Assembly: GCA_016206785.1 (NCBI GenBank)
Contig: JACQQV010000002.1
Location: forward strand, 1,554 to 65,553
Source: Candidatus Omnitrophota bacterium
Lineage (GTDB): Bacteria > Omnitrophota > Gorgyraeia > JACQQV01
Length of the DNA stretch: 64,000 nt
Reading direction: 5' to 3'
Part shown: in pieces, positions 4,608 to 64,000 of the stretch
Numbering within the stretch: the first letter of the stretch is position 1
Layout: every line of letters starts with the position of its first letter
The notes under the pieces: model-generated
Told to the model about the DNA's origin: nothing
Seen by the model: the letters and a program-made list of their open reading frames with translations, nothing else
The model's database searches: none
Position numbers and translations under genes: made by a program

Positions 4608-4620
4608 CCTTCCCCTCCCC

Positions 4621-48209: not shown

Positions 48210-49051
48210 CGCCGGGTTCCCACCTTTTCACGCCGCGCACTTTTCCTGCGGGGCGTCTCCATGGAGCAACACGATTCCTCACGACCTTGCAGCTTCAGGA
48301 TGCTCGGTTCCGCCGGATATTCGCGTGTGAGTTTGCTAGCGGCCGCTTTGTCCGTAATGATCGTGGCTTTCGGATGAAGCTGGACGATAGTCGCCGGAAC
48401 CATCGCGGTAATCGGCCCCTCGACGGTCATTGCGATCGCATCCGCCTTGTTGTCTTTATTGGCGAGGAGGATCAGTTGACGCGCCTCCATGATCGTTCCG
48501 ATTCCCATCGTGACCGCATACCGCGGCACTTCATCGAGTGACTTGAAGAAACGGGCGTTGTCTTGCCTTGTCCGCTCATCGAGCGTTTTCACACGGGTTC
48601 TTGACCCGAGGCTCGATCCCGGTTCATTAAAGGCGATGTGGCCGTTGGCACCGATTCCCAAAAGCTGGATATCGAGCCCACCGGCCTTCTTGATCTTTCT
48701 CTCATACGCCTCGCAGGCGGCTGGAATGTCGTCCGCCATCCCATTGGGGACGTTGGTATTTTGCTTCTTAATGTTGATGTCCTTAAAGAGGTTTTTATTC
48801 ATGAAATAGCGGTAACTTTGATCGTGATCGGGGAGAAGTCCAACATATTCATCAAGGTTAAATGTCGTGACCTTGGAGAAATCAAGCCCTTCATTTTTAT
48901 GGAGACGGATGAGTTCTTTGTAGGTTCCGACCGGGGTGCTTCCTGTTGCGAGTCCCAACACACAGTTGGGTTTTTTGCGGATGAGATCCGCGATGATCTG
49001 GGCCGCAAGGGTGCTCATTTCTTCGTAACTATCCTTGACTATGACTTCCAT
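48206..49051 (-). CDS. nagB: glucosamine-6-phosphate deaminase
   Basis: It has the NagB signature GLATGSTP and LGIGANGHIAFNEPGSSL. GGAGG sits 7 nt before the ATG. A C-terminal extension of about 30 aa overlaps the next gene (ATGA). Confidence 0.85.
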   Translation of the reverse strand: MEVIVKDSYEEMSTLAAQIIADLIRKKPNCVLGLATGSTPVGTYKELIRLHKNEGLDFSKVTTFNLDEYVGLLPDHDQSYRYFMNKNLFKDINIKKQNTNVPNGMADDIPAACEAYERKIKKAGGLDIQLLGIGANGHIAFNEPGSSLGSRTRVKTLDERTRQDNARFFKSLDEVPRYAVTMGIGTIMEARQLILLANKDNKADAIAMTVEGPITAMVPATIVQLHPKATIITDKAAASKLTREYPAEPSILKLQGREESCCSMETPRRKSARREKVGTRR

Positions 49052-49163: not shown

Positions 49164-49769
49164 TCATTCCAACATCAAATCGTCAATATATATAGACCCC
49201 TGCCCTGCTCCGCCCGGAAAACACTCGGTTTCAAAGCAGATGGCGATCGCGGCGATCTCCGAAAGATCTATCCCGAAAACATCGAGGGGAATAGAGGCCC
49301 GTTGCCAATCGGTCGTGATCTTCCCTTCCGGAAGATAGGTCCCGACATCTTCTGACTTTACGGTATCGTCCAATTCATCCCAGTGGCGATCCGAAATTCC
49401 TATCCGGAAATTTTCATCCCCCTTCGCCCCCTTCACCCAGAAATGAAGGATCTTAAAATGGCTTGCGTCTAGGTGTTTCTCGGCGATCTTCACGCGGGTG
49501 TAAAATCCGCACCATCCTCCTTTTCCATAAGGTCCCCCGACCCCTTTCTTGTCATAATCGAGTTTGAGTGCCTTTCCCCCCGGATCATGGCTTACCTCTG
49601 CGCTGACCGTGGCGACCGCCCGCGAAGGGGCCTGCTGATAGACGCTGGAGGCGCCCCCGAGGACATTGGACCGTTTGTCAAATTTGTGGATGATAAATTC
49701 CTCGGCAAATGCACACGTTCCTAGCGACAAGAAACAAGCGACAAGAAACGGTGTCTTTTTCACAACCAT
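49164..49769 (-). CDS. secreted protein with one VKGEKGGE-type beta-sandwich/CBM-like domain
   Basis: It has a signal peptide (MVVKKTPFLVACFLSLGTCAFA). The domain contains LDYDKKG...GWCGFY...FWVKGAKGDENFRIGISD...YLPEGKITTDWQRASIPLDVF. GGAGG is immediately 5' of the ATG at 49769. Confidence 0.7.
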   Translation of the reverse strand: MVVKKTPFLVACFLSLGTCAFAEEFIIHKFDKRSNVLGGASSVYQQAPSRAVATVSAEVSHDPGGKALKLDYDKKGVGGPYGKGGWCGFYTRVKIAEKHLDASHFKILHFWVKGAKGDENFRIGISDRHWDELDDTVKSEDVGTYLPEGKITTDWQRASIPLDVFGIDLSEIAAIAICFETECFPGGAGQGSIYIDDLMLE

Positions 49770-49831
49770 CCTCCTGCAGTTCGGAGTGGGGAGTTGGGAA
49801 TGTGGATTCCACACTCCGCATTCCGCACTCA

Positions 49832-51028
49832 TCATTTCCTCAAATGGAATTTTAAGTCGTCGATATATAAAACCCCTTCCTGTTTCTTATAAAAATTGAT
49901 GACAAAAGATCCCATCTGGGAGAAATCGAGGAGACCGAAATCTTGCAGAGGAATCGTGACCTCTTGCCATTCGGTGGTGACCCCTCCGGGAAGATATGCT
50001 TCAATCGGTCCCGCCTTCACTGAATCTCCAATCGTGAGCCAATTGCGATCCGCCATCCCGATTTCAAAGATCTCTCCCCCCCTCTCTCCCTTCACCATAA
50101 ACGTGAGCCTGTCATACCAGGAAAGGTCGAAGAAGGCGCCGTCAATTTCATTGAGAAGCGTATAGTACCCGCACCAACCGGTCCCTTCTTTTTGATAGGA
50201 AAGCTGTAAAGAGCGCCCCTTTCCTCCCCAGCGAGGTTCAGAAACGTGATTGAAGACGCAAACGGAAGGAAGTTTTTTGTAGCAGTTCGTCTTCCGACCG
50301 AGGAGATTTAAGTCATCATGATCAAAGTTGTCGAGGAGAAGATACCCCTGCTTTTCGATCTCCGCTTCCCGGTCGACCCTCTGCTCGGTGTGAAAGGTCA
50401 CTTCATCAATCCAGAAAGCGCCCTTTCCTATTTCGTTAAAATGAAAAACAATGCTGTACACCCGTGAAAGATCGGGGCCGAACCAGTCGCTTAATGGAAC
50501 TGCGACGCGCTGCCACTCGGTCGTAATCCCCTGCGGGAGGTATCGATAGATCGAACCGACAAAGACGGCATCCTCGCGCTTATTGGAAATAACGTCGTTC
50601 AAGCCCAGCTCAAACGTCTCCCCTCCCTTTTCTCCTTTGATATAAAACGTCATTGTTTTGTATTGAGAAAGATTCGCCATAATAATAAGGTAGGTGCCAA
50701 CAAATTCTTTCTCGCTCCGCCGGTCGTAAAGATATTTGACCGCTTCCTTGTCTTTCCCTTCCGGGTAAAACATCGTACCGTCGACAAAACAGCCGTATCG
50801 GGAAGGTTCGAGATTAAACCCGCCGATCCGCCCTCGGAACCCGAATTTTCGCTCTGCGGGAGTAAGGAAAGTATCTTGAGGAAGTGGGGGAAGATCTTTA
50901 AGCAGGATCGACTCCGCCCATGTGGGGGTAATGAGAAGGAGAAGAACAATAAGAGCGTATTTCGTATCTCGTGAAGCGTGAAGCGAGATACGCTTCACGA
51001 ACGACGAACGACGAGATTTATTTCTCAT
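49832..51028 (-). CDS. secreted protein with two tandem VKGEKGGE-type domains
   Basis: Copy 1 reads FYIKGEKGGETFELGLND...YLPQGITTEWQRVAVPLSDW. Copy 2 reads LSYQKEGTGWCGYY...FMVKGERGGEIFEIGMAD...YLPGGVTTEWQEVTIPLQDF. The start overlaps the upstream stop (ATGA). Confidence 0.7.
   Translation of the reverse strand: MRNKSRRSSFVKRISLHASRDTKYALIVLLLLITPTWAESILLKDLPPLPQDTFLTPAERKFGFRGRIGGFNLEPSRYGCFVDGTMFYPEGKDKEAVKYLYDRRSEKEFVGTYLIIMANLSQYKTMTFYIKGEKGGETFELGLNDVISNKREDAVFVGSIYRYLPQGITTEWQRVAVPLSDWFGPDLSRVYSIVFHFNEIGKGAFWIDEVTFHTEQRVDREAEIEKQGYLLLDNFDHDDLNLLGRKTNCYKKLPSVCVFNHVSEPRWGGKGRSLQLSYQKEGTGWCGYYTLLNEIDGAFFDLSWYDRLTFMVKGERGGEIFEIGMADRNWLTIGDSVKAGPIEAYLPGGVTTEWQEVTIPLQDFGLLDFSQMGSFVINFYKKQEGVLYIDDLKFHLRK
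50960..51015. repeat. Copy C of the CGTGAAGCG / CGCTTCACGAACGAC palindromic repeat family (inside 5' coding end)
   Basis: The sequence is tcgtatctcgtgaagCGTGAAGCGagataCGCTTCACGaacgacgaacgacgag. It encodes the SSFVKRISLHASRDT n-region of the signal peptide of the 49832-51028 gene. Confidence 0.55.
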
Positions 51029-53355
51029 TTCAACTCCAGGGTCCCGAACGTCGTCGGATCCCCCCAAATCCTATTGGTAGACGTGGAGATGAGACACTTC
51101 TGGGGGGCGCGGGCGTCATCTGTATCACTCACGTCGACACTTATCCCGAACTTTCTCCCCTTTACAAGCCGGGTATCGCTTCCTTTCTTCGCGGTGGCAA
51201 AAAGAATCTTCGTAGGGATGCGCGCCTCCAGGGTATACCCTCTTTCTATTTTCTTTGCAGCAACGGTCGCCTCCAAAAGGAGCGTCTTGTCGAGGGGAGG
51301 GGTCCATAAATAAAGTTCGGGTTTCAACGTTCCAAAATTACCGGGGCTTAACCCAAACTGAAAATCATCATCACTATTCACCGCTTCTGTATAATCTCCT
51401 TCAAGATCCATATCGAGCCAAATTTCCACGTGGTCCCCTTCCCAAAGATCCTCTCCTACCTTCTCCTGTGCCAACCGATCATCAAAGACGGCGACAGCCA
51501 GATAAAGGGCTCCTTCATCCCAACGGACCGATGCTTTAAAAGAGAGGTCCTTCTTTCCCCGCCAGGCCCCCTGCCCATAGACAACGTTTTCTTTTTCCTC
51601 AACAGTCGGCGCCTGGATCAACTCTTCCCATTCAAAGAGATCTCCGTCGGTAGTGACCGGTTTCGAGACCTGCATCGCATCGACCGTATAAAAGATTTTT
51701 CTTTCCTTTGTAGGAACGTTACGGCTTTTCTGAAGGTTTTTGTAACTGGAATAATGATGAATCGAAAATCCTTCGAAGGAAGAATAGGCCTCTACTCCTT
51801 GGGCAACCTCTTTCAAGACCTCCTCCATCCCCTCCCACCCCTCCTCAAAAAAGGTGTTGCGCCGACCGCCCTGCTTCATGGCAACAAGGTCTTGCGTCTC
51901 GACGCCGATCGACACCTTCTTTCCCATCGCCTCGGCCAATTGAAGGTGCGAAACGGCATTCCCTCCGATTTCCCTAACGGTGTCGTAGTAATCCATGAGT
52001 GCAATCGTGTCGACCGCCTCAAAAATCGACTTTTCGAATTCGGGTCCCTCCGCATCATAGAAAATAGGGGCCACCACGCCAAATCGGAACTTCTGATCGG
52101 GATACTCACCCAAGAGGGCTCTGATCTTTTTCAAGAGCGAAAGGAAACTCGCCTTCACTTTCTCCCGATTCTCATTCCACGCTTGATCGAGATACGGCTC
52201 GATATCCAGGGAAATCCCGTCCATGCGTGCCTCGACCGGGCGCTTCTGGTTAAACTCGAGAAAGGCACGGATCCATTGAAGCGCAACGGCGTGATTTTCT
52301 TCAAACTGCCAGATCGGGTTTCCGGTCAAAGCTTCGATGCGCAGCTTCCGCTTGTGCGCCTCTCGCAAAAATCCTTCCAGATGCTCAGCATACTTCGGAT
52401 CTTCCTTTTCGGAAAACTCCCCGATATAGAGGTAGAGATTTTGAATCCCTGTACGATCGCACAATTCAAAAAGTTCTTTGCGGGCCTTCAAGTTTTGCGC
52501 CGGATCGATATTCCAGACCCAGAGACTTCGGGGATGAAGCGGATCTCTCAAGGCGCGGGGGGCGTTTTCCAAAAGGATCCTTTCCACCTCGGGATCGTTT
52601 TTAAACAGGACGTCTTCAAGGTAAATACGGCCCCTCCCTTCGTAACGGAACCAAAGGACAAAAGAGCCCATTTCTGAAAGGTTCATCTCTGCGGCCAGTT
52701 TGGTCATTGGAAGCTTGACCTCCTGCCACTCGGTCGTTACCCCTTTCGGAAGAAAATTGTTGACCGATCCGAAATAGACAGCGTCGATGCCGAGGTCCTG
52801 CATCCTTTGATCCGCAAGACCGATGTCAAACACCTCCCCTCCCTTTTCACCCTTTACCCAGAAAGAGAGGGTATTCAAACCCGATACATCGATCCCAGCC
52901 AAAAGGTTATAGTATCCGCACCATCCCCCATCCTTATAGTAGTCGATTGCAAGTCCACGTCCCTTTTCCCCTCGACGCACAGTGTCTGATTTGGAAAGAA
53001 GTGAATAGGAAGGACGGTGCGCCCAGCTCCCTTGGTAACTTCCAAGCGAATTGAAACGCTCGGTGAAAATGCCGCTTGTGGCACCGAGATCAAAGTTGTC
53101 GACCAGGATACTTTGGGGAACAATCTCCACCTCTACTTCCGGTCCGGGTGCCTCGGAAGGGGCCTCAGTCATTTCCTTTGGAAGAGGAGGATAAAGACGG
53201 AAGGCGGCTTCTTGTTCAGGAACTGTTTCGAAAGGACGGCCTTTGTGAAAACGAGGACTCACCAAAAGGATGATCATGATAAGGGCAAGTAACAAAAAAA
53301 CCCCTAGGAGAATGAGTTCTTTTCGAATCCCTCTGAATCGTTTTTCCGGCGTCAT
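51025..53355 (-). CDS. membrane-anchored multidomain glycan-active protein: VKGEKGGE domain + TIM-barrel-like hydrolase-like region + CBM9-like C-terminal domain
   Basis: It has an N-terminal TM segment (ILLGVFLLLALIMIILLV). The VKGEKGGE domain reads YYKDGGWCGYYNLL...FWVKGEKGGEVFDIGLAD...FLPKGVTTEWQEVKLP. The C-terminus (GDLFEWEE...GALYLAVAVFDD...GDHVEIWLDMD...RIWGDPTTFGTLEL) resembles CBM9/DOMON-like modules. Confidence 0.65.
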   Translation of the reverse strand: MTPEKRFRGIRKELILLGVFLLLALIMIILLVSPRFHKGRPFETVPEQEAAFRLYPPLPKEMTEAPSEAPGPEVEVEIVPQSILVDNFDLGATSGIFTERFNSLGSYQGSWAHRPSYSLLSKSDTVRRGEKGRGLAIDYYKDGGWCGYYNLLAGIDVSGLNTLSFWVKGEKGGEVFDIGLADQRMQDLGIDAVYFGSVNNFLPKGVTTEWQEVKLPMTKLAAEMNLSEMGSFVLWFRYEGRGRIYLEDVLFKNDPEVERILLENAPRALRDPLHPRSLWVWNIDPAQNLKARKELFELCDRTGIQNLYLYIGEFSEKEDPKYAEHLEGFLREAHKRKLRIEALTGNPIWQFEENHAVALQWIRAFLEFNQKRPVEARMDGISLDIEPYLDQAWNENREKVKASFLSLLKKIRALLGEYPDQKFRFGVVAPIFYDAEGPEFEKSIFEAVDTIALMDYYDTVREIGGNAVSHLQLAEAMGKKVSIGVETQDLVAMKQGGRRNTFFEEGWEGMEEVLKEVAQGVEAYSSFEGFSIHHYSSYKNLQKSRNVPTKERKIFYTVDAMQVSKPVTTDGDLFEWEELIQAPTVEEKENVVYGQGAWRGKKDLSFKASVRWDEGALYLAVAVFDDRLAQEKVGEDLWEGDHVEIWLDMDLEGDYTEAVNSDDDFQFGLSPGNFGTLKPELYLWTPPLDKTLLLEATVAAKKIERGYTLEARIPTKILFATAKKGSDTRLVKGRKFGISVDVSDTDDARAPQKCLISTSTNRIWGDPTTFGTLELK

Positions 53356-53401: not shown

Positions 53402-54151
53402 GGGACTAAGTCCCTCCTGCGGTTAGACCCTTCCCCAAGCCTACCGAGACCCATTAAAAAAATCTAACTTTTTTGCAAGAAAATTTAACATTTTTACGTC
53501 ATGTATATTAGGAGCCTTGCTTATGATGAAAGGAGAAAACAATGCCCAGAACACATAGAGACGTATCGGATCCCGGTCTATACCACATCATCAATCGTGG
53601 AAACAATAGAATGCAAATCTTCCGAGACAACGATGACTACCAACATTATTTGAGACTCCTCAAAAGGTATAAGTCTTTGTTTAACTTCAAATTATATGCA
53701 TTTTGTCTGATGCCGAATCATGTCCATCTTCTCCTCGATACAATCGGCCCTCATAAAGGGGCCTCCCAGATCATGCATCGGCTCAACCTCGCCTATAGCA
53801 GTTGGTTTCAACTTCGCTATGAGTGGAAAGGCCACGTATGGCAAGGGCCGTTTCATAGTCTTCTCATTGACAAAGAGCGATACCTCTATGCCTGCGCAAG
53901 ATACATTGAATTGAATCCCTATCGAGCAGGTCTTGCCAGAGATCCAGTTGACTATCCATGGAGCAGTTTCCGCGACCATTTGCTTCCAAAGAGTTCTGGC
54001 CTGCTTGACCAACAGGAAATGGCTGATTATCTCTCATTAGGCCCAGACGAAAAATTCATCCAGGTCTACTCCGATCTTGTTCAATCCAGCCTTAGGGAAC
54101 AAGTCTAAGGCTCCTTGGGACTAAGTCCCAGCACAGACGGGACTTAGTCCC
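53402..54151. mobile_element. RAYT (REP-associated tyrosine transposase) unit with flanking GGGACTAAGTCCC hairpins
   Basis: One GGGACTAAGTCCC copy lies at 53402-53414, upstream of the gene. A doublet lies downstream: GGGACTAAGTCCC at 54117-54129 and its reverse complement GGGACTTAGTCCC at 54139-54151, separated by 9 nt and followed by TTTTT. Confidence 0.6.
53542..54108 (+). CDS. REP-associated tyrosine transposase (RAYT; IS200/IS605 Y1 TnpA-like)
   Basis: It has the HUH motif (PNHVHLLLD) and a catalytic Tyr region (YIELNPYRAGL). At 188 aa it has the size of a RAYT. AGGAG sits 7 nt before the ATG. Confidence 0.8.
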   Translation: MPRTHRDVSDPGLYHIINRGNNRMQIFRDNDDYQHYLRLLKRYKSLFNFKLYAFCLMPNHVHLLLDTIGPHKGASQIMHRLNLAYSSWFQLRYEWKGHVWQGPFHSLLIDKERYLYACARYIELNPYRAGLARDPVDYPWSSFRDHLLPKSSGLLDQQEMADYLSLGPDEKFIQVYSDLVQSSLREQV

Positions 54152-54156
54152 GGTTT

Positions 54157-57100
54157 TTACACGCCACTCCCAACTTCAACGGGTTTCTGCATCAAAGGAA
54201 ACTCCCCTGCCCGAGGAAGATCAAGTAATCGCCTGCCCCCATCTTGAGCGGGTCCTCTTTTCTTCTCCCAAATAGAAAAACTTCCTTCACCGAAGGGAAC
54301 ATCAATCTCTTTCCAAAAATTATTCTCAACCACTCCAGCCGGTGCAACAAGGTATCCCCCCTCCCTTAATCCACCGATTTGGAGGAGGGGCCCTCCTCCT
54401 CTCATGAAATAAAGATCAAAACCTTCCCTAAGGACTTTTTTAAGATGCTTGGGATAACTTTCTGGTTGAATCAGATCCACCTTTTCGAAAAAGGTGATCT
54501 TTCGAGGAATCCGTTTCCCATCATCCGGATGGGCCCAATTAAAATGGATCTCAAAGGTCTTCCTTCCGATGTGTCGAATCCCTTGAATCTCAGCCCCCAT
54601 CCCCACAAGGTCCCAAAGGAGGGGAACTTTTAACCCTCCCAGCTGGCGTAGTGAGAGTTCCCTTTGAAAACCACTGTCCCACACTGTTCTATCTATTAAA
54701 AACCATTCGAGGAGGAGTGGGTCGTTTATCCCCTCCTCCTTTCCAAAGGGAAGGAAATCCACAAAGAGGGCATCGGTAAGATTTGTGGCAAGGAAGAAAC
54801 TCGCAGCATCGCCTCCAGAAGCGTAATAAAACCCTCTCTGGAGTTCTCCATGAGGATTGACGATATTTTTGATTCGGGTGTAAGAGTCTATTTGAATCGA
54901 GCTGACCACTTTTTCCTCGAGTAATTTCTTAATCTCCGGCGAAATCTCCGGCGTAACCCATTTTCCTTTTCCACCCCCATCCCGGGAGGTACCTTCTTCT
55001 ACATCGTTCAAAGAGAGAAGTTCCTTTAGACTCGCAAGGTCTTCTCGAGGACCTTCGAGAAGCCGCGCTTCAATCCAATTTTTCAGATCCTCCTTCTCCT
55101 CTTCGGATAGGGAGACGATGCCGGCACCGATCGGTTGAAGCGCCATTACTTCTCGCACCCACTCATCCTCCATCGCGACCGGGAGACCCTTTTCGATGAT
55201 CGCCTTCTCAAATTGAAGTTTCGGAAGAAGGATCTTATCGAAGAGAGCTTTGGGGATGGAATTTTGAGTGATAAAAGCATCAACCCAAAGAACCGATCCT
55301 TTTTCATCCAAACCGATAAGTCCCTTCACAGGCTCGGAAGCCTCAAAGATAGGAATGCCCATTGGACGAAGTGCATGTTTCACTTCTTGATATTCGATAA
55401 AATGGGATCCGTCGTCGTGCGCGAAAGCGTCGGAATCCGGCCACAGGTGCTTGAAATTTTCGATGGAGTAGACTTCATAGGCACGGGTACGGTAGTGATT
55501 CACAAGGGAAGGCGGGGCAAAGTGCGAAAGTCTTTGCGCAGTGACTTCAATCGGATGCCCCCCAGCGACCTCCCATCCTCCCTGGTGGAGACGGGTCAAA
55601 AAGAACAAAGCCAGATCACGATCCTTGGTCAAATACCCCAAATCCCGGAGCACCACCCGCCCATTTCGAATCCTCGTATTTTTCAAGAAATGAAGGTCCA
55701 GATTCACAATGCGCTTTTCCTTGATAAGCCACACATCCAAGCGAAACACTTCTTCAATTTTCGCCATGGCCTCTTCCAGTTTCCCTTCCTGCACCAACTC
55801 TTTAAGAATATCGACCATAAATACGTCGTTTCTTTCCCTCACAATGGCATGCCGAAGGTGAATCACCGCCTCCTCCCCGTCTTTAGGGATTCGAAGCGTC
55901 ACGTTCTCTAAAATCACAAAAGGATCAATGTAGGTATCCTCTAGTGCAGCCGCGATTCGGTAACTCTCCAATCCATACCCGACGCTTAAATCTTCTCCGA
56001 ATAAATGACGGAGGACTAACTTGATTCTTTTCTTCGCTGCTTTGGCCCAGGGAGAGGTTTGGTGGTTGAGCGTCACTTCCGTATTTTCCTGCAAATCATA
56101 AATCGCCAAGTCTTCGCTTAGGTAAATCGTGCGTGCCTGGGCCCCTCCAAAAATCGGTGTGAAGCGCTGCCGAGCGATCTTTTGAAGGAGCTCTTCTACC
56201 AACCCTAGATGCGTGCCGCCATCTTTGGAAGTAGGCACAATCGTCGTTCCCGCTTTTCCTTCGAGCGCCTCTAAAAGATGCTGTCCGTCTGTGATGATGA
56301 CTTTTTCTCCGCCGTTTCCGAGGAAATCGATCGCCGCCTCGATCTTGGGGCCCATGCTCCCGGCCGGGAATTGACCTGCGGCAAAATACCGCTTCGCTTC
56401 ATCCATGGTAAGCGTCGAGAACGCTCTTTGCGTCGGTTTCCCGAAATCAAGTGCCACCTGATCCACCGCCGTCAAGATAATAAATTGCTCCGCCCCAATA
56501 CGCTTGGCAAGAAGTGCGGAGGTCCGGTCTTTATCAATCACCGCATCGAGACCTTTAAGCCCTCTCAAAGAAACGGGGATCCCCCCACCACCGGCCGCTA
56601 CAACGATCACCCCTTTCTCCAGAAGACCCTGAATAATCTTCTCTTCCACGATCTCTCTTGGAAGAGGTGACGGCACCACACGGCGCCATCTTCCCGGTTT
56701 ATATTCTTTGAATACCCAGCCCCTTTCATTGGAGAGTTGCTCTGTTTCTGCTTTTGTGTACTCTTTCCCGATGAATTTCGTGGGATTTTGGAAAGCGGGA
56801 TCATTAGTATCTACGACAACATTCGTGATGAGAGCGACAACCTCCTTCGGAACGCCCTCTTTTTGAAGGAGTCTCCGCAAAGTGGATGCGATCATATAAC
56901 CCATCGATCCCTGTGTCTGCGCCCCGACATATGGAAGTCGCATGGAAGGGGCTTCCTTCTTTTCCGCTGCAATCTCTATCCGAAGAAGTCCTTCTCCAAC
57001 CTGTGGTCCGTTTCCATGCGTGATGACGACTGTTTCTCCCCGCTTGATCAACTCCACTACTGGCTCCAGCATTCTTTCGAGGCTCGGTAACTGATCATCC

Positions 57101-60100
57101 GATGTCTCCCCTTCAAACGCATTTCCACCCAGCGCAACCACAAAGGGAGCACTCTTTGTGCCGCCGTCGTTTGATGAGGGGGGGAGATCCTTTCCCGCGA
57201 CGGGAAGGGTGAGGAGCCGTTCCTCCAGGCGCCCAAGTTCTCTTAGAGTGGCCTCATGGTTTTCCTTAAGTTTGATAACGAGTGGAATCCGATCAAATGG
57301 AATATGTGCCTCATCGAGAACTTCAAAAATCCCGATCCTTCTTTCCTCGTCCTTTTCCTTGGAGTGGAGAACCGCTACGTGGTAGATATTTTCTTGTTCT
57401 TTAAATTGTTCCAAAAGCCCGATGACAAACACCTTATCCCATGTGGCAATGCCCCTTTCAAAAAGCTTCTTGGCATATTCCCACTCTTCATCATCGGTTT
57501 CCAAAAGAAGTTCCTGCTTCACCTCATCCCAAGTCGCAGGGGCCGTTTCAAAAATAGCCTCGAGCCGCGCATTCAGCATCTTCCGGGCATAATAAGAAAT
57601 GTGAAATCGGTAAATCTCGATCGCCTTTCCCCGGCTTTTCTCCATCATGATATTTTTTCCGATACCGGGATAATCCTCTCCAGTGTAAACGGCCTCCACT
57701 GTAATACGCTTACCAGAAACAGGATCCCGATCCAAAAGTGCAACGGCTCGAATCATTTCATTGATGACTTCGGGCGTAAAGATGCGTGTATCGATATCTG
57801 TTCCCTTCTCTCGATTCACCTCCTCATTCTTATACTGCACCCGCTCATAATAGTAAGGCGTCATGGTGAGGCCTGCGCCGGGAAGAATTTCATTCATACG
57901 GGGATTGTAGGAGATGGAAGGGGTCGTTAATATAGAAAATGGGAGAAGGATCTTCTGGGATGGAACCACAAGGCCTGCGCCGACGAGAATACCTGTTTCG
58001 GCAGAAAAAGGATAAATGATATCTGTATTTGTGCCCAAGAAGGCGGCCGTTGGATAATAAGCCTCTTCGGTAGGTCCACGGCTCGGATGATTACTTCCCG
58101 TATGGTGGCCCCCCACATTTCCCATTCCGCCTGGCCAAAGGCCCGCGATCAAAATCGAAGGATGATTTTTGCCGACGAAGGGACCTGCCAAAAAGGCGAC
58201 CACATGCCCAAATCGCATGATGGAATGAGGTCCAATCACAGCATCTTCGACGACGACATTGTCCTTGGCTCCCGAGTGTGCCATGAAAATCGCGTTCCGA
58301 ACCGTTGCGCGCTCTCCAATATAGGTTCCTTCGTGGACGATAGTGTCCGAAACAATCGCGCCAGAGTTAATGACGGAGGGATAACGTCGACTGCTTAAGA
58401 CCGTCACGTCGTGGAGTTCCTCAGCATTTTTGATGGCCGCGTATTCGCCAATTTTTGCGTTGATGATTTCTTTCGTTCGTAGAATGGTGGCCCCTTGAGA
58501 GACCTTCCCCCGTTCAGACCTCAAGACATTTGCGTGCTCCTTTGCCGTCCTTCGATGCGTCTCCAAAAGGAGACGATCATTTCTTTTCATGACAATCCGC
58601 GCGATCTCCTTAAAGGTGAGTCGATCGTCACTGATGAGATCCGGCTTCCTCTCCTTCTCGGGTCCGATCGCGATCTCAATGCCATTTCCAAAAGTGCTTT
58701 TCCCTCGCATGGAAAGATAGGAATCCTCGATGCGAACATGGTCTTCAATGTCGTATCGTGATATAGAGGCGCTGAGAAGGGATGAGCCGTTTCCAATCGT
58801 GGAATGATCGATCTCTTTCCCGCGGATGATCTTGACGTTTTCTCCAATGACAGAACTATTGATGAGACCGCTGAGATGACTCCTGCGACCGATCTTGCTT
58901 CTGCCGGTAATACGCGTACCCATATCCATCACGCCATCCCAGAATTCGCTGATATCCACATGCGGGCCGATATAGATCCTCTCCAAAAGAATGCTTAAAG
59001 CACCTCCTCTCACTTTTACCCCTTGGCGCTCCAATTGTTTCGCAAGATCCACCTTCCGCTGAAAGTGGGGATCGCTCTTTAACTGCTTCAGCATCCCTTC
59101 AAATATCTCTCTAAAGTTTTTATTACCACCATCTCTGGCCACACTTCGTCTGTGCAAGACCTCTTTCTCAAGTGCCCAGACAGATTCAGGATCATTGGGC
59201 TGGATCAGTTTATAGACGTCCTCGGGTGGAACAGTCACCGCCTCTGCCGAAAGACCTGCTTCGATAACACCTATAATTCCGTATTCAATGAGCGGCTGCG
59301 TGCGGAAAGGACGAAGGGTGCGGAGAACCTGACGGAGTTTTTCTGTCCTTTTAAAGCCGTAAAATCCTGCATTGACGAGACGGATCGCCTTCAAGTCTCC
59401 CTGACGGTAAAGCCTTCCGCTGATCTTCTGATCCCCTTGATCGATTTCACTCTGTTCAACAATCTTTAAAATCTCACTGCCCTTTGAAAGGAGGATGCGA
59501 CCAAGACCATTCGGATTTTCGACCTCTTGAGCGACAAAAATGGCGTCACGGGTTGTTTGGTGAAGTGATTTTTCTAACCATGTCATAAACTTCCCATCAA
59601 TCGCGGCCGCATCTCCATTGATGACAAGAACAGGACCGTCGTATCCTTGGAGGGCTTGAAGACCCTGCAAAAGACCTTCCGCCGTCCCTCCCCGAGGAGG
59701 CGTCTGTTCAATATACGTCAAACCCGGAATTTCCCGGTCGAACGCCTCGACTACCCTAATTCTTCCGTATCCCACCACAACTACCGTCGGGATCCCTTTT
59801 TCTCGTAATGCAAGAATCGGCCAGAGGCTCATCGGTCTTCCCAAAAAGGGAAAAAGATGCTTGAGATGCGGCTTCATCCGTGTCCCTTCCCCTCCTGCAA
59901 GGACGATCGCAGCAATCCCCCGTTTTCTGACAAGGTCGAGATCGATCGGATTTTTCAGATAAAGATCCCCTCGGCTCAGTTTCTCGTCAAATGTCTCTCC
60001 GAGTGTTTTGTTGCTTCCGTCCTGCGCGGCCGGGCCTGAACGCCTCGCCTCTTCGACCGCCCGACGGAGGAGCTTAATTTTTTCCATATTATTCGGTCCC

Positions 60101-60927
60101 ACATCGAGACGCAGGATGGTTACCTCAGAGACAGCGCGGGATTTCAGTTCAGAAATGTACAAGCGGATGATGGCATTGATAACGACACCGGCGACAGTAA
60201 TTTTTATCTCGTCCAAATTTTCTCTTCGTGTTTCTCTGAGATGAGAAAGAAGCCAAACGGTTGAGACCATCTCTTCAACTTTCTGAATAAGCCATATAAG
60301 CGGTAAACCAATCAAAAGTGTGCCTATCGCCCACGCCACCCACACCGCAAGAGCCGCCTTCCCCACTGACGGCAACACTGACTCAGGAGTTATGTCCTCT
60401 ACACCGTGCGTAATGATGAGATGGACGATAAAACCGATAACACCCACCGCCGGCAGAATACCTGATAAGTTCACAATAGTCGATCTGGCTGTGGAATCAT
60501 CTTTTATCCACCCGCTTTCAAAATTCCGGTGATGCATTAAAAGAATATCCCGATAACGGTGGAGAGGCAAATGGTGCCGCGAGAGTTGATTCGAGGTTTC
60601 CGTAAGAACTTGGGAACGCTCTTCTGGGGTAAGGCCTTCTAGAAAGGACAGCACATATGTGAGGTCTTCTTTTCTTAAGAGATAGTGGGAAAGGTCGTGT
60701 TCTCCTCCATCCCTTGCAAAGGGGGCCTTCGTTCCAGAAGAAATTGGAGAGAGAGGGGGTGTTTGGACAAGTGCTGTCCGAAGAGCGGCACTTTTTTGCC
60801 GGGCCGCTTTTGGACGAAGCGCTTCCTGGGGGCCAAAGGCATACGAGAGATCCGTGTAAAGTACTGACCACAAAAAGGTTTGGGTCAAAATGAAACAAAC
60901 TGGTCTAAAAAAAGGCTTTTTTACCAT
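54157..60927 (-). CDS. 2256-aa multidomain protein: N-terminal TM anchor + sugar-1-phosphate nucleotidyltransferase + GlmU-like LbH + carbamate-kinase-like (amino-acid-kinase fold) + about 650-aa uncharacterised C-terminus
   Basis: TM helices occur at roughly aa 160-215. The nucleotidyltransferase motif is AAIVLAGGEGTRMKP. Hexapeptide LbH tracts are homologous to the protein encoded at 46956-48209. The carbamate kinase signature is APFVVALGGNAFEG...VVITHGNGPQVG...VVAAGGGGIPV. The ORF is single and uninterrupted. Confidence 0.75.
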   Translation of the reverse strand: MVKKPFFRPVCFILTQTFLWSVLYTDLSYAFGPQEALRPKAARQKSAALRTALVQTPPLSPISSGTKAPFARDGGEHDLSHYLLRKEDLTYVLSFLEGLTPEERSQVLTETSNQLSRHHLPLHRYRDILLMHHRNFESGWIKDDSTARSTIVNLSGILPAVGVIGFIVHLIITHGVEDITPESVLPSVGKAALAVWVAWAIGTLLIGLPLIWLIQKVEEMVSTVWLLSHLRETRRENLDEIKITVAGVVINAIIRLYISELKSRAVSEVTILRLDVGPNNMEKIKLLRRAVEEARRSGPAAQDGSNKTLGETFDEKLSRGDLYLKNPIDLDLVRKRGIAAIVLAGGEGTRMKPHLKHLFPFLGRPMSLWPILALREKGIPTVVVVGYGRIRVVEAFDREIPGLTYIEQTPPRGGTAEGLLQGLQALQGYDGPVLVINGDAAAIDGKFMTWLEKSLHQTTRDAIFVAQEVENPNGLGRILLSKGSEILKIVEQSEIDQGDQKISGRLYRQGDLKAIRLVNAGFYGFKRTEKLRQVLRTLRPFRTQPLIEYGIIGVIEAGLSAEAVTVPPEDVYKLIQPNDPESVWALEKEVLHRRSVARDGGNKNFREIFEGMLKQLKSDPHFQRKVDLAKQLERQGVKVRGGALSILLERIYIGPHVDISEFWDGVMDMGTRITGRSKIGRRSHLSGLINSSVIGENVKIIRGKEIDHSTIGNGSSLLSASISRYDIEDHVRIEDSYLSMRGKSTFGNGIEIAIGPEKERKPDLISDDRLTFKEIARIVMKRNDRLLLETHRRTAKEHANVLRSERGKVSQGATILRTKEIINAKIGEYAAIKNAEELHDVTVLSSRRYPSVINSGAIVSDTIVHEGTYIGERATVRNAIFMAHSGAKDNVVVEDAVIGPHSIMRFGHVVAFLAGPFVGKNHPSILIAGLWPGGMGNVGGHHTGSNHPSRGPTEEAYYPTAAFLGTNTDIIYPFSAETGILVGAGLVVPSQKILLPFSILTTPSISYNPRMNEILPGAGLTMTPYYYERVQYKNEEVNREKGTDIDTRIFTPEVINEMIRAVALLDRDPVSGKRITVEAVYTGEDYPGIGKNIMMEKSRGKAIEIYRFHISYYARKMLNARLEAIFETAPATWDEVKQELLLETDDEEWEYAKKLFERGIATWDKVFVIGLLEQFKEQENIYHVAVLHSKEKDEERRIGIFEVLDEAHIPFDRIPLVIKLKENHEATLRELGRLEERLLTLPVAGKDLPPSSNDGGTKSAPFVVALGGNAFEGETSDDQLPSLERMLEPVVELIKRGETVVITHGNGPQVGEGLLRIEIAAEKKEAPSMRLPYVGAQTQGSMGYMIASTLRRLLQKEGVPKEVVALITNVVVDTNDPAFQNPTKFIGKEYTKAETEQLSNERGWVFKEYKPGRWRRVVPSPLPREIVEEKIIQGLLEKGVIVVAAGGGGIPVSLRGLKGLDAVIDKDRTSALLAKRIGAEQFIILTAVDQVALDFGKPTQRAFSTLTMDEAKRYFAAGQFPAGSMGPKIEAAIDFLGNGGEKVIITDGQHLLEALEGKAGTTIVPTSKDGGTHLGLVEELLQKIARQRFTPIFGGAQARTIYLSEDLAIYDLQENTEVTLNHQTSPWAKAAKKRIKLVLRHLFGEDLSVGYGLESYRIAAALEDTYIDPFVILENVTLRIPKDGEEAVIHLRHAIVRERNDVFMVDILKELVQEGKLEEAMAKIEEVFRLDVWLIKEKRIVNLDLHFLKNTRIRNGRVVLRDLGYLTKDRDLALFFLTRLHQGGWEVAGGHPIEVTAQRLSHFAPPSLVNHYRTRAYEVYSIENFKHLWPDSDAFAHDDGSHFIEYQEVKHALRPMGIPIFEASEPVKGLIGLDEKGSVLWVDAFITQNSIPKALFDKILLPKLQFEKAIIEKGLPVAMEDEWVREVMALQPIGAGIVSLSEEEKEDLKNWIEARLLEGPREDLASLKELLSLNDVEEGTSRDGGGKGKWVTPEISPEIKKLLEEKVVSSIQIDSYTRIKNIVNPHGELQRGFYYASGGDAASFFLATNLTDALFVDFLPFGKEEGINDPLLLEWFLIDRTVWDSGFQRELSLRQLGGLKVPLLWDLVGMGAEIQGIRHIGRKTFEIHFNWAHPDDGKRIPRKITFFEKVDLIQPESYPKHLKKVLREGFDLYFMRGGGPLLQIGGLREGGYLVAPAGVVENNFWKEIDVPFGEGSFSIWEKKRGPAQDGGRRLLDLPRAGEFPLMQKPVEVGSGV

Positions 60928-61045: not shown

Positions 61046-63994
61046 TTAGACTCCCTTTTCGATGGTTTCCATCTCAAGCGCCTGATGTTTCAGGTCATCC
61101 AGTTGTTGACGCTGTGCCGGGGTAAAGAGAAGGCCCATCACCTCTCCCAAAGAGAAGTTCTGTCGTTCATGAGAATTCTGAATGATCCCCAGATCAATAG
61201 CTGTTCTGAGACCTTCTGCATCAAATGTAAGACCTTCGGGAAGCTTGATCTCCTTCGCTTCCACGCCTTCGAAGTAACGGGCGAGCACTTCATACCATTG
61301 AAGGGCTTCATCTACCGTGACACGACTGTCCTGAATCACTTTTCTGATAGAATTCGGAAGAGTGAGTTGATCCGAAATCTTTCCAATGAGATTGCGCGTC
61401 CTCGGATCGAGAAGGCGGATCTTTTGTACAAAGAGCTTTGCATTTATCCCTGTTCTAAGTGAAAGCTGTGACGCAATTGCTGCTTCATATATTTCTTCAT
61501 TCGGATGCGACAAAGGACTTAAAGAAGCGATTCCTTCTTGAACGCCAGGGATCGGATTCGCAGGAAGTTGTGGGCGGCTCCACTCCAAAGGCTTTCCTGT
61601 TCTCAGATGAACTCCTGTTCCTTCTAACATCCCTTTGGGATCCTGAAGAGACCCCAATGGTTCCAAAGAAGAAGGTGGGATTCCTCCCGAGAGACTGGGA
61701 CGATTCGGCGTCGATGGACTCTTTCCCCATCTCCCTTGAATGCCTGCACCATATTCCCATTCGCCACGATCCCTACCCAGTGAGGCGTGGAGGTTGATTT
61801 CACCTATTCGACGCATCGTTCGGATATTCATGCGCTCCTCGGCAACGGCGATATTCCACATATTTCCAAAAAGGGAACCTTGAAGTCTTCCTTCGTAATA
61901 TCCTTCGCCTGCGGCAAGACCCAGGGAAAGGTTATCCCAAGAATAAGAAAGACTTCCCCTCGTGAAGATATTTTCCAAAGCAAAGGAGGTGGAAATCCCA
62001 CGTTCATCCAAAGCGCGCAATACCGCCTCACGGGCCTGAATGACCTTGAGATACTCATCAAATGAAGCTTTAAGGTAAAGCCAACCGTGTTCGATTCCGA
62101 GCCGCAGGCGCTCTGCGAAAACGGCATGCGCCTGAACAAAATCGCTGAAGAGTGTCCATACACCCGGATCAGAAATGAGCGCTGCACTGTACCCCGCCTC
62201 AAGAATATCCTGATAGTGCCAGGCGATTGCATGGGAAAGTTCATAAGGGGGCATCTCGAGGCGGACTCCGTGGCGCCGTAAGGAGGGGAGATAATCGTAA
62301 CCAATGACAGTCTTTTCGAAACGGAGCGGAGAACCGAATTTGACGCGAGAGCTCATCACAAAGTTTGAGTCCGGTAAATAATCCAATCCGAGACCAAAGA
62401 AAAGGTTATCGCGGAGATGGAGAAGCCGCTTTGCATTTTCAAGTTCTGCAGACTGATCCTCTAAGCTCACCAATCTTTTCCGAAGCAAACGTTCCTGTTC
62501 CGCCAAACGGGCGATATCATTCGGGTCTGTTGCTTGTTGCAACTGTCTTTGCACTTCTATCAGCGAACGACTTGTTTCTTTAGACTGGTCGCCGAGCTTT
62601 TCTTCCTCTGTTTTGGGAGAAAGATAAGGAACCCTCATCCGGTCTTCAACAGAGAACGAAAGATTTGAAGAACCCCATGGCCAGTTGTATTGAAAACGGT
62701 AAGCAAGATCCTCTGGTCCTTCCAAATTAAGAAACCTCACATATGCGTCCCCGTAAGAACGGCGTCTTTCCTCCCGATTTTTCTTAAGCCATTCGCGCGT
62801 TACGGTTGCACCCTGAGGGGATTCTGTAAGGGCGATATGTTCTGCTTCGCCAAGTGTTGCATCTTGACTCAGCCACTTACGAAGTGCTGTTAGGGCTTCC
62901 TCTTTTTCTTTTTCCGACCATGGTTGTTGTCCGATAAGTGCTCCCCAATTCGAAACAAGCGCATTGAGCTGGCTTGTCAGCCCTTCCTTTGCCCCACGGA
63001 GTGTCGAGGCTGCGTCGTTCATTTTTTCTGCGGCGCTCGCAATCTCCGATTCGGCGCGACTTAGATCATCTTCAGTCCTCATATAACCCAAAAGACCCTC
63101 GATGATAAAGCGTTGGGACTCCGGCACCCTCGAAAGCTTCGTCTCCAGTTCATGCATGTCGGTAGTACCAGAGGAAGTAGCCTCGGGACTTTCCACCATC
63201 GATGCAAAGAAGGACCCTGAGGAAGTTCCTTGTACGGGAACGGACGGCCGTATGAAAAGGAGCCGTTCTAGTTGGAGGATAGTGTTGGACCCTGCATCGT
63301 TGATCCACTTTAACCGGATGCGATGCGTTCCGCTCAGGTTTCCGAGTGTCGCACCACTCGTGCGAACCGCTCCTGTCGAATCTGCAGGAACGCGGATATG
63401 GTCGATGCGGCCGTCACCGTTGGAATCGAGCGGCTGGCCGTCCAGATACGCCTCCATGTCGAACCGGTAGCCTTCTGGCAAAGAGGCCGGCATACGATTC
63501 CTCGCGTACACCACAACACTCCATGTCGGCGCTTCCTGCCCGAAATCGACGGCATATCCCGCAGAACCATTTTCCTCGGCATAAAGGGCGTTCCCGTCGG
63601 CGAACCAAGTTCCCTCGGTGGCGGTGGTATCGGAAGCGGCTTTCTGGAGGCCACCAACCTGAAGGGTGCCTGATCGGATAACACGTGCCAACCGGTCATT
63701 GTCTTGTGTATTCGGGCCTTCGGCATCGACATCCAGCAGATTAAAACTGACCGTATAAGGCCCCGGCGGAATTTCAGTGACAGTTCCTGCCCGCGCTTCC
63801 TGAACCACTTTTGTGATCGGATAATCCGCAATCTTCACGGTTTCCACACCCGTACCACCCCGCGTGAGAATCGTTCTCATCGGAACGCCCACCACATATG
63901 AAACAATGGAACGCCGGGTGCTGTCCCGTTGATCGAGGCTTGCAAAGTTAAATTCTCCGTAAAGACCGCGGACTTCGGGAAGGGGCGCAAGCAC
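61046..63994 (-). CDS. large hypothetical protein, N-terminus probably beyond window end (at least 982 aa)
   Basis: The frame is open to the window edge upstream of the GTG at 63994. It has a central coiled-coil/acidic region. I recognise no catalytic motif. Confidence 0.5.
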   Translation of the reverse strand: MLAPLPEVRGLYGEFNFASLDQRDSTRRSIVSYVVGVPMRTILTRGGTGVETVKIADYPITKVVQEARAGTVTEIPPGPYTVSFNLLDVDAEGPNTQDNDRLARVIRSGTLQVGGLQKAASDTTATEGTWFADGNALYAEENGSAGYAVDFGQEAPTWSVVVYARNRMPASLPEGYRFDMEAYLDGQPLDSNGDGRIDHIRVPADSTGAVRTSGATLGNLSGTHRIRLKWINDAGSNTILQLERLLFIRPSVPVQGTSSGSFFASMVESPEATSSGTTDMHELETKLSRVPESQRFIIEGLLGYMRTEDDLSRAESEIASAAEKMNDAASTLRGAKEGLTSQLNALVSNWGALIGQQPWSEKEKEEALTALRKWLSQDATLGEAEHIALTESPQGATVTREWLKKNREERRRSYGDAYVRFLNLEGPEDLAYRFQYNWPWGSSNLSFSVEDRMRVPYLSPKTEEEKLGDQSKETSRSLIEVQRQLQQATDPNDIARLAEQERLLRKRLVSLEDQSAELENAKRLLHLRDNLFFGLGLDYLPDSNFVMSSRVKFGSPLRFEKTVIGYDYLPSLRRHGVRLEMPPYELSHAIAWHYQDILEAGYSAALISDPGVWTLFSDFVQAHAVFAERLRLGIEHGWLYLKASFDEYLKVIQAREAVLRALDERGISTSFALENIFTRGSLSYSWDNLSLGLAAGEGYYEGRLQGSLFGNMWNIAVAEERMNIRTMRRIGEINLHASLGRDRGEWEYGAGIQGRWGKSPSTPNRPSLSGGIPPSSLEPLGSLQDPKGMLEGTGVHLRTGKPLEWSRPQLPANPIPGVQEGIASLSPLSHPNEEIYEAAIASQLSLRTGINAKLFVQKIRLLDPRTRNLIGKISDQLTLPNSIRKVIQDSRVTVDEALQWYEVLARYFEGVEAKEIKLPEGLTFDAEGLRTAIDLGIIQNSHERQNFSLGEVMGLLFTPAQRQQLDDLKHQALEMETIEKGV

Positions 63995-64000
63995 AAGATC

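Follow-up and report, generated by a model that had tools for sequence, protein, structure and literature searches.

The window considered here, a stretch of 64,000 nucleotides from contig JACQQV010000002.1 of a Candidatus Omnitrophota genome, carries on its minus strand an open reading frame (ORF) for a protein of 2256 amino acids (aa), a real gene that joins seven complete, normally separate proteins. These seven modules (M1–M7), together with a leader of 72 aa and a tail of 25 aa, are the pieces obtained when the protein is divided at eight junction sites built around the tripeptide Asp-Gly-Gly (DGG). The ORF is one member of a DGG-framed family that is defined by its framing and not by the enzymes it encloses. 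We favor, at about an even chance of being correct, the reading that this is an exported Omnitrophota polyprotein, framed by its leader and tail and cut at the DGG junctions.

The junctions follow the consensus [AS]-[RQSN]-D-G-G-x-[KR], and they join all elements of the protein, leader and tail included. DGG occurs six times in the 2256 aa against 0.87 expected, DGS or DDG variants occupy two further positions, and all of these sites lie between modules (Table 1), each of which has the extent and size of a complete stand-alone protein. Module envelopes cover approximately 82% of residues 76–2256; all seven strict junctions fall within the remaining 18%, for which the chance probability is 0.18^7, or about 6e-6. 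The fit is close where it can be measured against a known structure. The carbamate kinase module (M4) is flanked by the DGG at 1254 and the DGG at 1569; in its alignment with the P. furiosus enzyme 1e19, the native N-terminus would lie within about one residue of the position following the first DGG, and TSK alone separates the native C-terminus (the last residue of 1e19) from the second.

The same framing recurs, with other cargo, in at least ten related Omnitrophota proteins (related proteins and loci are given below by our P and L numbers). Family membership was defined by a leader containing LR[PASTQ][KRQ][SAP], at least three [AS]x-DG[GAS]-x[KR] junctions at module borders, a proline-rich tail ending in [SN]GV or similar, and near-absence of cysteine, all of which are present in the 2256-aa protein. 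P0002 (1814 aa), P0003 (1942 aa), and P0004 (1358 aa) are close relatives; P0005 (1449 aa), P0007 (1629 aa), and P0099 (2006 aa) came to light when the C-terminal third was used in an exhaustive HMMER scan, and further members are neighboring genes in the relatives' loci. Scans of species-representative genomes and metagenome contigs returned only two contigs, both already known, and a word-indexed protein search proved insensitive, missing the query's own entry, P0001, when given aa 1572–2256, and known members when given the leader profile. Across eight members (13,720 aa), DGG is the most enriched tripeptide, with 32 occurrences against 4.4 expected; position −2 is alanine or serine at 27 of these 32 sites, position −1 is mostly arginine or glutamine, and position +4 is lysine or arginine at 24. 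A junction follows the DUF4954 module in all five relatives regardless of which module comes next, and one of the type that precedes the tail here (J8 in Table 1) stands ahead of the tail in eight members as well as in the ends of the L7/L8 upstream genes.

This conservation resides in the peptide and not in a DNA repeat, since the codons differ at every junction of the 2256-aa protein; a repeat or recombination site in the DNA was ruled out on the same grounds. A genome-wide habit of using DGG was also ruled out, as other proteins of the window carry the tripeptide at the chance rate and in unrelated contexts. It is conceivable that DGG is an evolutionary scar of cassette recombination without present function: modules are shuffled at the junction points, and in polymorphic toxin systems the borders of cassettes are marked by conserved motifs. 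However, only about six nucleotides (GAYGGNGG) are shared in the DNA, with differing codons at and around the junctions, and so short a match does not suffice for recombination, whether site-specific or driven by homology. The amino acid conservation also extends to positions −2 and +4, and DGG stays fixed across orthologs of 32–59% identity while the neighboring linker residues diverge, leaving the scar a very unlikely explanation.

The initial annotation had described the ORF as uninterrupted, and this is borne out: the frame is unbroken over 6771 nucleotides, its GC content and base composition are even along its length, and NCBI holds an identical protein, from a Candidatus Omnitrophica metagenome-assembled genome (MAG), under the name "carbamate kinase." A fusion of two or more genes through misassembly or sequencing error might be suspected, given that the source is a MAG and that equivalent modules lie in two genes at locus L005 (GCA_964374045.1). 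Beyond the open frame and even composition, this is countered by the joint between the carbamate kinase and M5, a clean in-frame DGG without the tail, stop codon, and leader expected of simple concatenation, and by the length of other members, which are independently long (1358–2006 aa) in separate assemblies. We regard an artifact as highly improbable.

The L005 locus has the same gene order as the window and is preceded by a giant gene encoding 6100 aa, but distributes the window's modules over two adjacent genes that are 6 nucleotides apart. The first, L5_1655 (1655 aa), encodes leader, nucleotidyltransferase, DGG, DUF4954, DGG, carbamate kinase, DGG, and a tail ending …GNGV; the second, P0005, encodes leader, DGS, an M5-like kinase, a transmembrane (TM) block, an acyl-CoA dehydrogenase, an M6-like module, and tail. 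The BLAST alignment between the window protein and L5_1655 stops precisely at the DGG after the carbamate kinase in both. At L007 the carbamate kinase is followed by DGG, an M6-like module, and tail, and at L008 by a different module. Modules are reassorted between neighboring genes precisely at the junctions, with a leader or tail gained or lost as needed.

The leader and tail are themselves conserved. In the leader of the 2256-aa protein, a conserved polar residue (Q/E) interrupts the hydrophobic core and an A-x-A-like site (LSYA|F) is followed by an LRP[KR] motif. Ten aligned leaders, from the window protein and nine others, have invariant L37 and R38 and share L-R-[PAST]-[KRQ]-S after the A-x-A-like site; the signal-peptide features were read by eye in these ten, and the hydrophobic segment was detected. 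Most members have a tail rich in proline whose usual ending is …ESGV or …GSGV, with related tails reading …QKPIEVGSGV, …QRPVAVESGV, …LLESGV, …LVESGV, …AVTSGV, …ALGNGV, and …AVERSL. Neither leader nor tail matches a known sorting-signal model in NCBIfam.

Cysteine is almost excluded from these proteins. The 2256 aa include one, at position 11 and within the leader, and none occurs in P0002, P0005, P0007, P0099, either of the L005 genes, the partial gene upstream of P0099, or the upstream ORF of the window. Against the background of 0.92% in other window proteins, the per-protein binomial probabilities are 1e-4 to 1e-8. The neighboring carbohydrate-binding module (CBM) proteins are not depleted, and among seven stand-alone relatives of M5 and M7, five have 1.0–2.5% cysteine and two have none. 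The RTX toxins HlyA and CyaA and autotransporter passengers are examples of proteins that must cross an outer membrane in an unfolded state, and a low cysteine content is typical of this group. In relatives without M1, the N-terminal segment is the only hydrophobic one, which, in conjunction with the basic N-terminus, suggests that the body of the protein is directed outward. Leader features, outward orientation, and cysteine exclusion therefore allow moderate confidence that the chain is exported, as far as sequence can indicate.

These features bear on a model that develops the initial annotation: a membrane-anchored polypeptide facing the cytoplasm and channeling sugar-1-phosphate activation, acylation by the beta-helix, and a supply of carbamoyl phosphate or ATP. 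The nucleotidyltransferase–DUF4954 pair does recur in P0002, P0003, and L5_1655, the order nucleotidyltransferase–DUF4954–carbamate kinase in L5_1655, and DUF4954–carbamate kinase in the partial L8_up; the enzymes need cytoplasmic cofactors, and a possible third TM segment in M1 (aa 240–261) would put the rest of the chain inside. However, a leader that appears cleavable and suited to export, combined with a family-specific and near-total exclusion of cysteine, argues against a cytoplasm-facing enzyme complex, as does the outward orientation of relatives without M1. The elements that follow the DUF4954 module (carbamate kinase, aminotransferase, or a helical module) and the carbamate kinase (M5, M6, another module, or the tail) also vary, with no fixed pathway order. 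Because the module set differs between relatives, and because modules are split and fused among neighboring genes, the order does not reflect a conserved pathway design. The logic of a single pathway is thus disfavored by complete modules separated by DGG, by their variable order, by the export-type leader, and by cysteine depletion, and we consider it unlikely.

The exported polyprotein that we favor would operate as follows. A Sec-type leader would route the chain out of the cell, probably through a membrane channel and unfolded; a dedicated, putative protease would recognize the DGG connectors and cut them; and cutting would free the individual enzymes and strip the leader and tail, so that the mature products would be the same whether modules sit in one gene or in two. 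Cleavage is supported by the connector itself, which is short and specific in a way that a floppy linker does not need, and by its use to attach targeting peptides (leader and tail) as well as enzymes. It is also supported by fusion and fission at the junctions, which would be neutral if the released modules are the mature products, and by the difficulty of co-folding dimeric, trimeric, and tetrameric enzymes on links of approximately 10 residues: carbamate kinase forms dimers, left-handed beta-helix proteins form trimers, and acyl-CoA dehydrogenases assemble as dimers or tetramers. We infer cleavage from these features, and the claim that the DGG junctions are protease sites, and the protein a polyprotein, seems to us about evenly balanced between right and wrong. 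The module content, and the neighboring genes for CBM proteins, a NagB-like protein, and sugar transporters, point to the capture and processing of (amino-)sugar polymers, in keeping with the host-dependent, cell-wall-degrading way of life that has been proposed for the phylum.

Several observations weigh against cleavage. No peptidase domain was found by Pfam in the 64-kb window, nor among the called genes of five syntenic loci. The junction between M2 and M3 has been lost in P0002, and several others are degenerate (DGS, DGA, DGQ, DDG), so that some boundaries can evidently do without the motif. It also occurs without the hydrophobic residues that precede the site in classical double-glycine (C39) leaders, and giants reported to carry C39 domains show no excess of DGG. 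Enzymes dependent on ATP, nucleoside triphosphates (NTP), pyridoxal phosphate (PLP), and flavin adenine dinucleotide (FAD) would be placed outside the cytoplasm without an obvious supply of substrates. Finally, the signal peptide was judged by eye, and the family is carried by only about seven independent contigs.

The main rival reading is that of an uncut multi-enzyme scaffold, tethered to the membrane by its leader and TM hairpin, in which DGG serves as a hinge, or else as a docking motif that binds a shared partner, for example a surface layer, a component of secretion, or a scaffold. Such a protein would account for the lack of a protease nearby and for the retention of both M2 and M3 in P0002 after loss of the junction between them; long uncut multi-enzyme proteins with a signal peptide and TM segments are the default reading of Omnitrophota giants, and short linear motifs in multiple copies often bind one partner repeatedly. 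However, a hinge has no need of a fixed D-G-G with constrained positions −2 and +4, nor of being the same connector that attaches leader and tail. Fusion and fission of modules between adjacent genes would be easier to tolerate if covalent linkage were irrelevant to the mature products, and connectors of about 10 residues are sterically awkward between modules of differing oligomeric state. We hold the scaffold to be possible but somewhat unlikely. A wider version of the polyprotein reading may also be entertained, tentatively and as a doubtful proposition: a cellular bacterial polyprotein system in which leader and …SGV tail would export cysteine-free enzymes of cytoplasmic type, possibly onto or into prey or host, and in which a protease cutting [AS][RQ]DGG-x[KR] would make fusion and fission selectively neutral, providing the first cleavage-site grammar for oversized Omnitrophota proteins.

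Table 1. Features of the 2256-aa ORF and its neighbors, in positions of the window.
Feature	Position	Strand	Residues (aa)	Description
Candidate polyprotein ORF	54157–60927	minus	2256 in total	ATG start; stop codon 54157–54159
Leader	60712–60927	minus	1–72	basic N-terminus MVKKPFFR, ~20-residue hydrophobic core, low-complexity spacer
J1	60703–60711	minus	73–75	ARDGGEH
M1	60022–60702	minus	76–302	helical; two-TM hairpin, aa 149–179 and 183–217
J2	60013–60021	minus	303–305	AQDGSNK, DGS variant; DGG at the aligned site in P0002, P0003, P0004
M2	59134–60012	minus	306–598	sugar-1-phosphate nucleotidyltransferase; G-x-G-T-R-M signature
J3	59125–59133	minus	599–601	ARDGGNK; DGA in P0003, duplicated in P0004, lost in P0002
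M3	57169–59124	minus	602–1253	DUF4954 left-handed beta-helix protein, 652 aa
J4	57160–57168	minus	1254–1256	SNDGGTK
M4	56224–57159	minus	1257–1568	complete carbamate kinase
J5	56215–56223	minus	1569–1571	SKDGGTH; point at which two L005 genes correspond to one ORF here
M5	55417–56214	minus	1572–1837	atypical protein-kinase-like fold (AceK/Bud32/RIO-like)
J6	55408–55416	minus	1838–1840	AHDDGSH, degenerate DDG; border of M5 and M6 homology
M6	54982–55407	minus	1841–1982	small module found only in the DGG-framed family
J7	54973–54981	minus	1983–1985	SRDGGGK
M7	54244–54972	minus	1986–2228	widespread uncharacterized domain
J8	54235–54243	minus	2229–2231	AQDGGRR, before the tail
C-terminal tail	54160–54234	minus	2232–2256	RRLLDLPRAGEFPLMQKPVEVGSGV; proline-rich, ends S-G-V-COOH
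Upstream neighbor	61046–64000	minus	984 visible	incomplete at window edge; no Pfam match; cysteine-free
IS200-type Y1 transposase	53542–54108	plus		PF01797, E 3e-18; between the 2256-aa ORF and its downstream partner
CBM9/CBM30 protein	51025–53355	minus		downstream block
CBM30 protein	49832–51067	minus		downstream block
CBM30 protein	49164–49835	minus		downstream block
NagB-like Glucosamine_iso protein	48206–49051	minus		downstream block
NTP_transf_4 + Hexapep protein	46956–48209	minus	417 in total	downstream block

The membrane-anchor segments of the initial annotation are confirmed as the hydrophobic hairpin of M1 and a weaker N-terminal segment; M1 has a third, weaker hydrophobic stretch at aa 240–261 and gave no family match in a Pfam search. 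Its account of the next two modules holds for an NTP-transferase followed by a hexapeptide-type region, but not for a "GlmU-like" beta-helix. The M2 motif LAGGEGTRMKP lies within a nucleotidyltransferase match at aa 340–527 (PF00483, 51.7 bits against a gathering score of 21.2; PF12804, 59.3 bits), its best matches in the PDB are GlmU N-terminal domains (E ~1e-10), and it is 54–56% identical to the equivalent module of P0002–P0004. Against the GlmU equivalog TIGR01173, the protein scores 98.3 bits where the cutoff is 366.85, with only model positions 2–200 of 452 matching. The beta-helix is instead DUF4954 (PF16314, aa 671–1000, E 1.6e-28, 100 bits against a gathering score of 26.2), and M3 shares 46–53% identity with P0002, P0003, and L5_1655.

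M4 is a carbamate kinase, as first annotated, and not the generic amino-acid kinase considered as the alternative. The motifs VALGGNA, ITHGNGPQVG, and AAGGGGIPV lie inside a carbamate kinase match at aa 1262–1564, and profile matches run over the full length: TIGR00746 aligns over model positions 3–308 of 309 (E 1.3e-101; 339.7 bits, slightly under the equivalog cutoff of 358.25), and the subfamily model NF009007 over positions 5–314 of 316 (299.6 bits, over the cutoff of 266). The module is colinear with residues 5–314 of 314 in 1e19 (E 2e-78), and the active-site motifs GGNA, HGNGPQVG, GGGGIP, IDKD, and GSMGPK are kept, all of which indicates, at the level of sequence comparison, a genuine enzyme.

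The last 650 or so residues had been described as having no recognizable motifs. Pfam and NCBIfam give no match to aa 1572–2256, in agreement with this description; the region is nevertheless composed of three modules, one of them with a protein-kinase-like fold. M5 was found to have the bilobal arrangement of a kinase; in 11 sequences (module numbering), K65 is nearly invariant and D173, N179, D191, and G193 are invariant, which by analogy would fit the roles of the lysine, the catalytic aspartate, the Mg-binding asparagine, and the aspartate of D-x-G. No named kinase family was recovered by sequence in Pfam, NCBIfam, or PDB sequence profiles, in which the PDB hits were spurious. M6 is 43% identical to aa 1246–1416 of P0005 and 41% identical to the gene upstream of P0007, and has no Pfam match. 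M7 carries the motif Y-G-x-S-G-x-D … F-V-D … G-I-D-x-Y-x-x-K-A and is found stand-alone (~280 aa), in proteins of ~790 aa, and in giants of up to 6460 aa (MCG3176805.1); one of the M7 giants is annotated as an Omnitrophota protein. Stand-alone relatives of M5 and M7 measure 250–320 aa, compared with 266 aa (M5) and 243 aa (M7) here. M7 has no Pfam or PDB match, the PDB sequence-profile hits being spurious and the Pfam hits stray and sub-threshold. An S-adenosylmethionine methyltransferase, hinted at by G-x-G-x-D … V-D, found no support, with an hhalign probability of 0.4% against the Methyltransf_23 protein of the window, a weak test, and a single-sequence AlphaFold model of aa 1572–2228 was unusable (pLDDT 35). 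A family of approximately 770–800 aa (P0019, P0032, P0048, P0056, P0057, P0062, and others) has M7 near aa 480–700 and a conserved end, …(I/L)-L-N-L-R-Q-K. Many large or giant M7 proteins among P0012–P0097 have leaders similar to those of the framed family (…F-L-x-x-D-L-S-Y-A, then L-x-P-x-S) and end not in SGV but in …A-A-COOH (for example QIGAAA, IKQAA, TAAQAA), with no excess of DGG; they may form another, broader class that has a C-terminal signal of its own.

The cargo carried across the family includes aminotransferase, acyl-CoA dehydrogenase, NAGPA phosphodiester glycosidase, DUF294, multi-TM blocks, a large helical module, and relatives of M5 and M6. The DUF294 putative nucleotidyltransferase is a module in the N-terminal part of P0004 and also stands alone in the window (39560–40834, plus strand). 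A recurrent multi-TM module occupies aa 355–591 of P0005, aa 358–630 of P0007, and aa ~812–1070 and ~1361–1617 of P0099. It bears the motif Y-x-W-Q-x-x-x-x-x-G-A-x-x-x-G-x-S-D-x-x-G-Q-W, which resembles the Mpv17/PMP22 signature, although the module has no Pfam hit at E<0.01.

On the minus strand, the order of genes is the upstream ORF, the 2256-aa ORF, the IS200 transposase (on the opposite strand), the CBM9/CBM30 protein, two CBM30 proteins, the NagB-like protein, and the NTP_transf_4/Hexapep protein; part of the downstream block is shared by L001, L007, and L008. The upstream neighbor, which extends for about 400 aa beyond the window edge, is the ortholog of a leader-bearing L005 gene of 1372 aa, L5_1372 (E 1e-109). 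A C-terminal domain of approximately 150 aa ending in …[KR]-[QG]-V is common to the upstream ORF (61046–61500, minus strand), P0004 (aa 1210–1358), and L5_1372, and may be an alternative to the SGV tail. What had been annotated as a RAYT beside the large gene is the IS200-type Y1 transposase (PF01797), which lies just past the 3′ end; at the four syntenic loci L001, L005, L007, and L008, the called genes flanking this site are directly adjacent and the transposase is absent, which indicates a recent insertion in the window genome. The 417-aa neighbor, previously taken for a stand-alone paralog of the beta-helix, could not be related by sequence to the DUF4954 module (E 3.9).

Three successive CBM30/CBM9 genes (49164–53355, minus strand) are conserved downstream of the framed genes: L005 has the full set, L007 and L008 have at least the first two, and L001 has the first. 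Their products probably work together with the framed proteins. Elsewhere in the window lie genes for the uptake, synthesis, export, and breakdown of glycans: a sugar ABC transporter, an SSF symporter, Wza/Wzz/BY-kinase, a flippase, GT2/GT4, Wzy, a sulfatase, a GH94 phosphorylase, and ROK proteins. Two of the transporter genes are unusual fusions, one of 742 aa joining SBP_bac_1 to an ABC permease (43530–45758, plus strand) and the next a permease with an N-terminal CBM30 (45755–46903, plus strand). The GH94 (cellobiose/chitobiose-type) phosphorylase (4621–7017) lies between two ROK-family proteins (3348–4655 and 7084–8328, all on the minus strand), an arrangement that fits the theme of glycan salvage.

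To our knowledge, Omnitrophota encode the longest known bacterial proteins. For the giant genes of the "Archaeovorin" and "Dockerin-type" kinds, C39 and S8 peptidase domains have been reported and post-translational cleavage proposed, with the C39 domains as suggested agents of the cutting (bioRxiv 10.1101/2023.11.21.568195), and for long multi-enzyme Omnitrophota proteins with signal peptide and TM segments, a conflict between metabolic content and secreted topology has been noted (bioRxiv 10.64898/2026.06.07.730766). Neither preprint mentions junction motifs, linkers, polyproteins, cysteine, carbamate kinase, or DUF4954, and our literature searches on Omnitrophota polyproteins and on DUF4954 returned nothing relevant. 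The framing by leader, junction, and tail appears to be unreported, and, in line with the initial annotation, the search found no publication that describes an enzyme of this architecture. The literature asks whether the giants are cut, with no cleavage points known; the DGG junctions are the first concrete candidate cut sites for oversized Omnitrophota proteins, and in the 2256-aa protein and its relatives, which are smaller and more tractable kin of the giants, the modules are complete, recognizable enzymes with one statistically robust peptide at their borders. If cleavage takes place, ordinary metabolic enzymes would be produced in bacteria by a virus-like polyprotein strategy coupled to export, a new kind of bacterial system, and related large proteins could be divided computationally by means of the junction grammar. 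If the chain stays uncut, a physiological puzzle is still posed by the combination of an export leader, cysteine exclusion, and enzymes dependent on ATP, NTP, PLP, or FAD in bacteria believed to need hosts or prey.

The closest known kind is that of the very long, signal-peptide-bearing multi-enzyme Omnitrophota proteins. These belong to the same phylum, combine a signal peptide and/or TM helices with metabolic enzyme domains of cytoplasmic type, and have the M7 domain in common with the framed family; at L005, L5_1372 alone separates the family from the 6100-aa giant, two genes upstream. However, the giants measure 10–147 thousand aa and the framed family 1.3–2.3 thousand. The junction peptide, conserved tail, and cysteine exclusion of the family contrast with sampled giants that lack a DGG excess and end …AA, and a search of distantly related giants by 4-mer enrichment recovered no junction motif, with only the M7 core motif YYQR(A) standing out. 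C39/S8 or SecA-related domains, which with lengths of tens of thousands of aa characterize the giants (West-Roberts et al.), were not found in the 2256-aa protein by Pfam.

Individual parts of the protein also have familiar counterparts. As in GlmU, a sugar-1-phosphate nucleotidyltransferase precedes a left-handed beta-helix, but here a junction separates M2 from a DUF4954 helix of 652 aa, and only the N-terminal domain of GlmU is matched. M4 matches stand-alone carbamate kinase (ArcC; PDB 1e19, 1b7b) over its full length with the catalytic-site motifs kept, but is embedded between two DGG junctions in a leader-bearing and nearly cysteine-free chain. The junctions share with C39 double-glycine processing sites a G-G core and a tolerance of GS and GA variants, here DGS and DGA at homologous junctions. 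Unlike classical double-glycine leaders, which are hydrophobic at −4, −7, and −12, they have aspartate at −3 and R/Q/S/N at −4, with nothing conserved further upstream, and Pfam detects no C39 domain in the window or the syntenic loci.

Among processed proteins, the MARTX toxins of Vibrio and its relatives carry variable arrays of effector modules that arise by cassette exchange and are released by cleavage within short linkers, and RTX toxins as a class, HlyA and CyaA among them, are without cysteine. MARTX proteins have RTX repeats, an internal cysteine protease domain, and a C-terminal type I secretion signal, no Sec leader, and modules that are toxins against eukaryotic targets; in contrast, Pfam finds neither RTX repeats nor an internal cysteine protease domain in the 2256-aa protein, whose cargo consists of metabolic enzymes of housekeeping type. 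Polyprotein precursors, such as those of viruses and the gingipain RgpA/Kgp/HagA proteins of Porphyromonas, offer a further parallel, in that one ORF would give several mature proteins through cuts at a recurring short site between complete domains; they differ in that processing is here a putative step and the cargo a changeable set of metabolic enzymes. By analogy, and without the domains that define either group, the working principle of the DGG-framed family would most resemble that of MARTX-type modular autoprocessing toxins and of polyprotein precursors.

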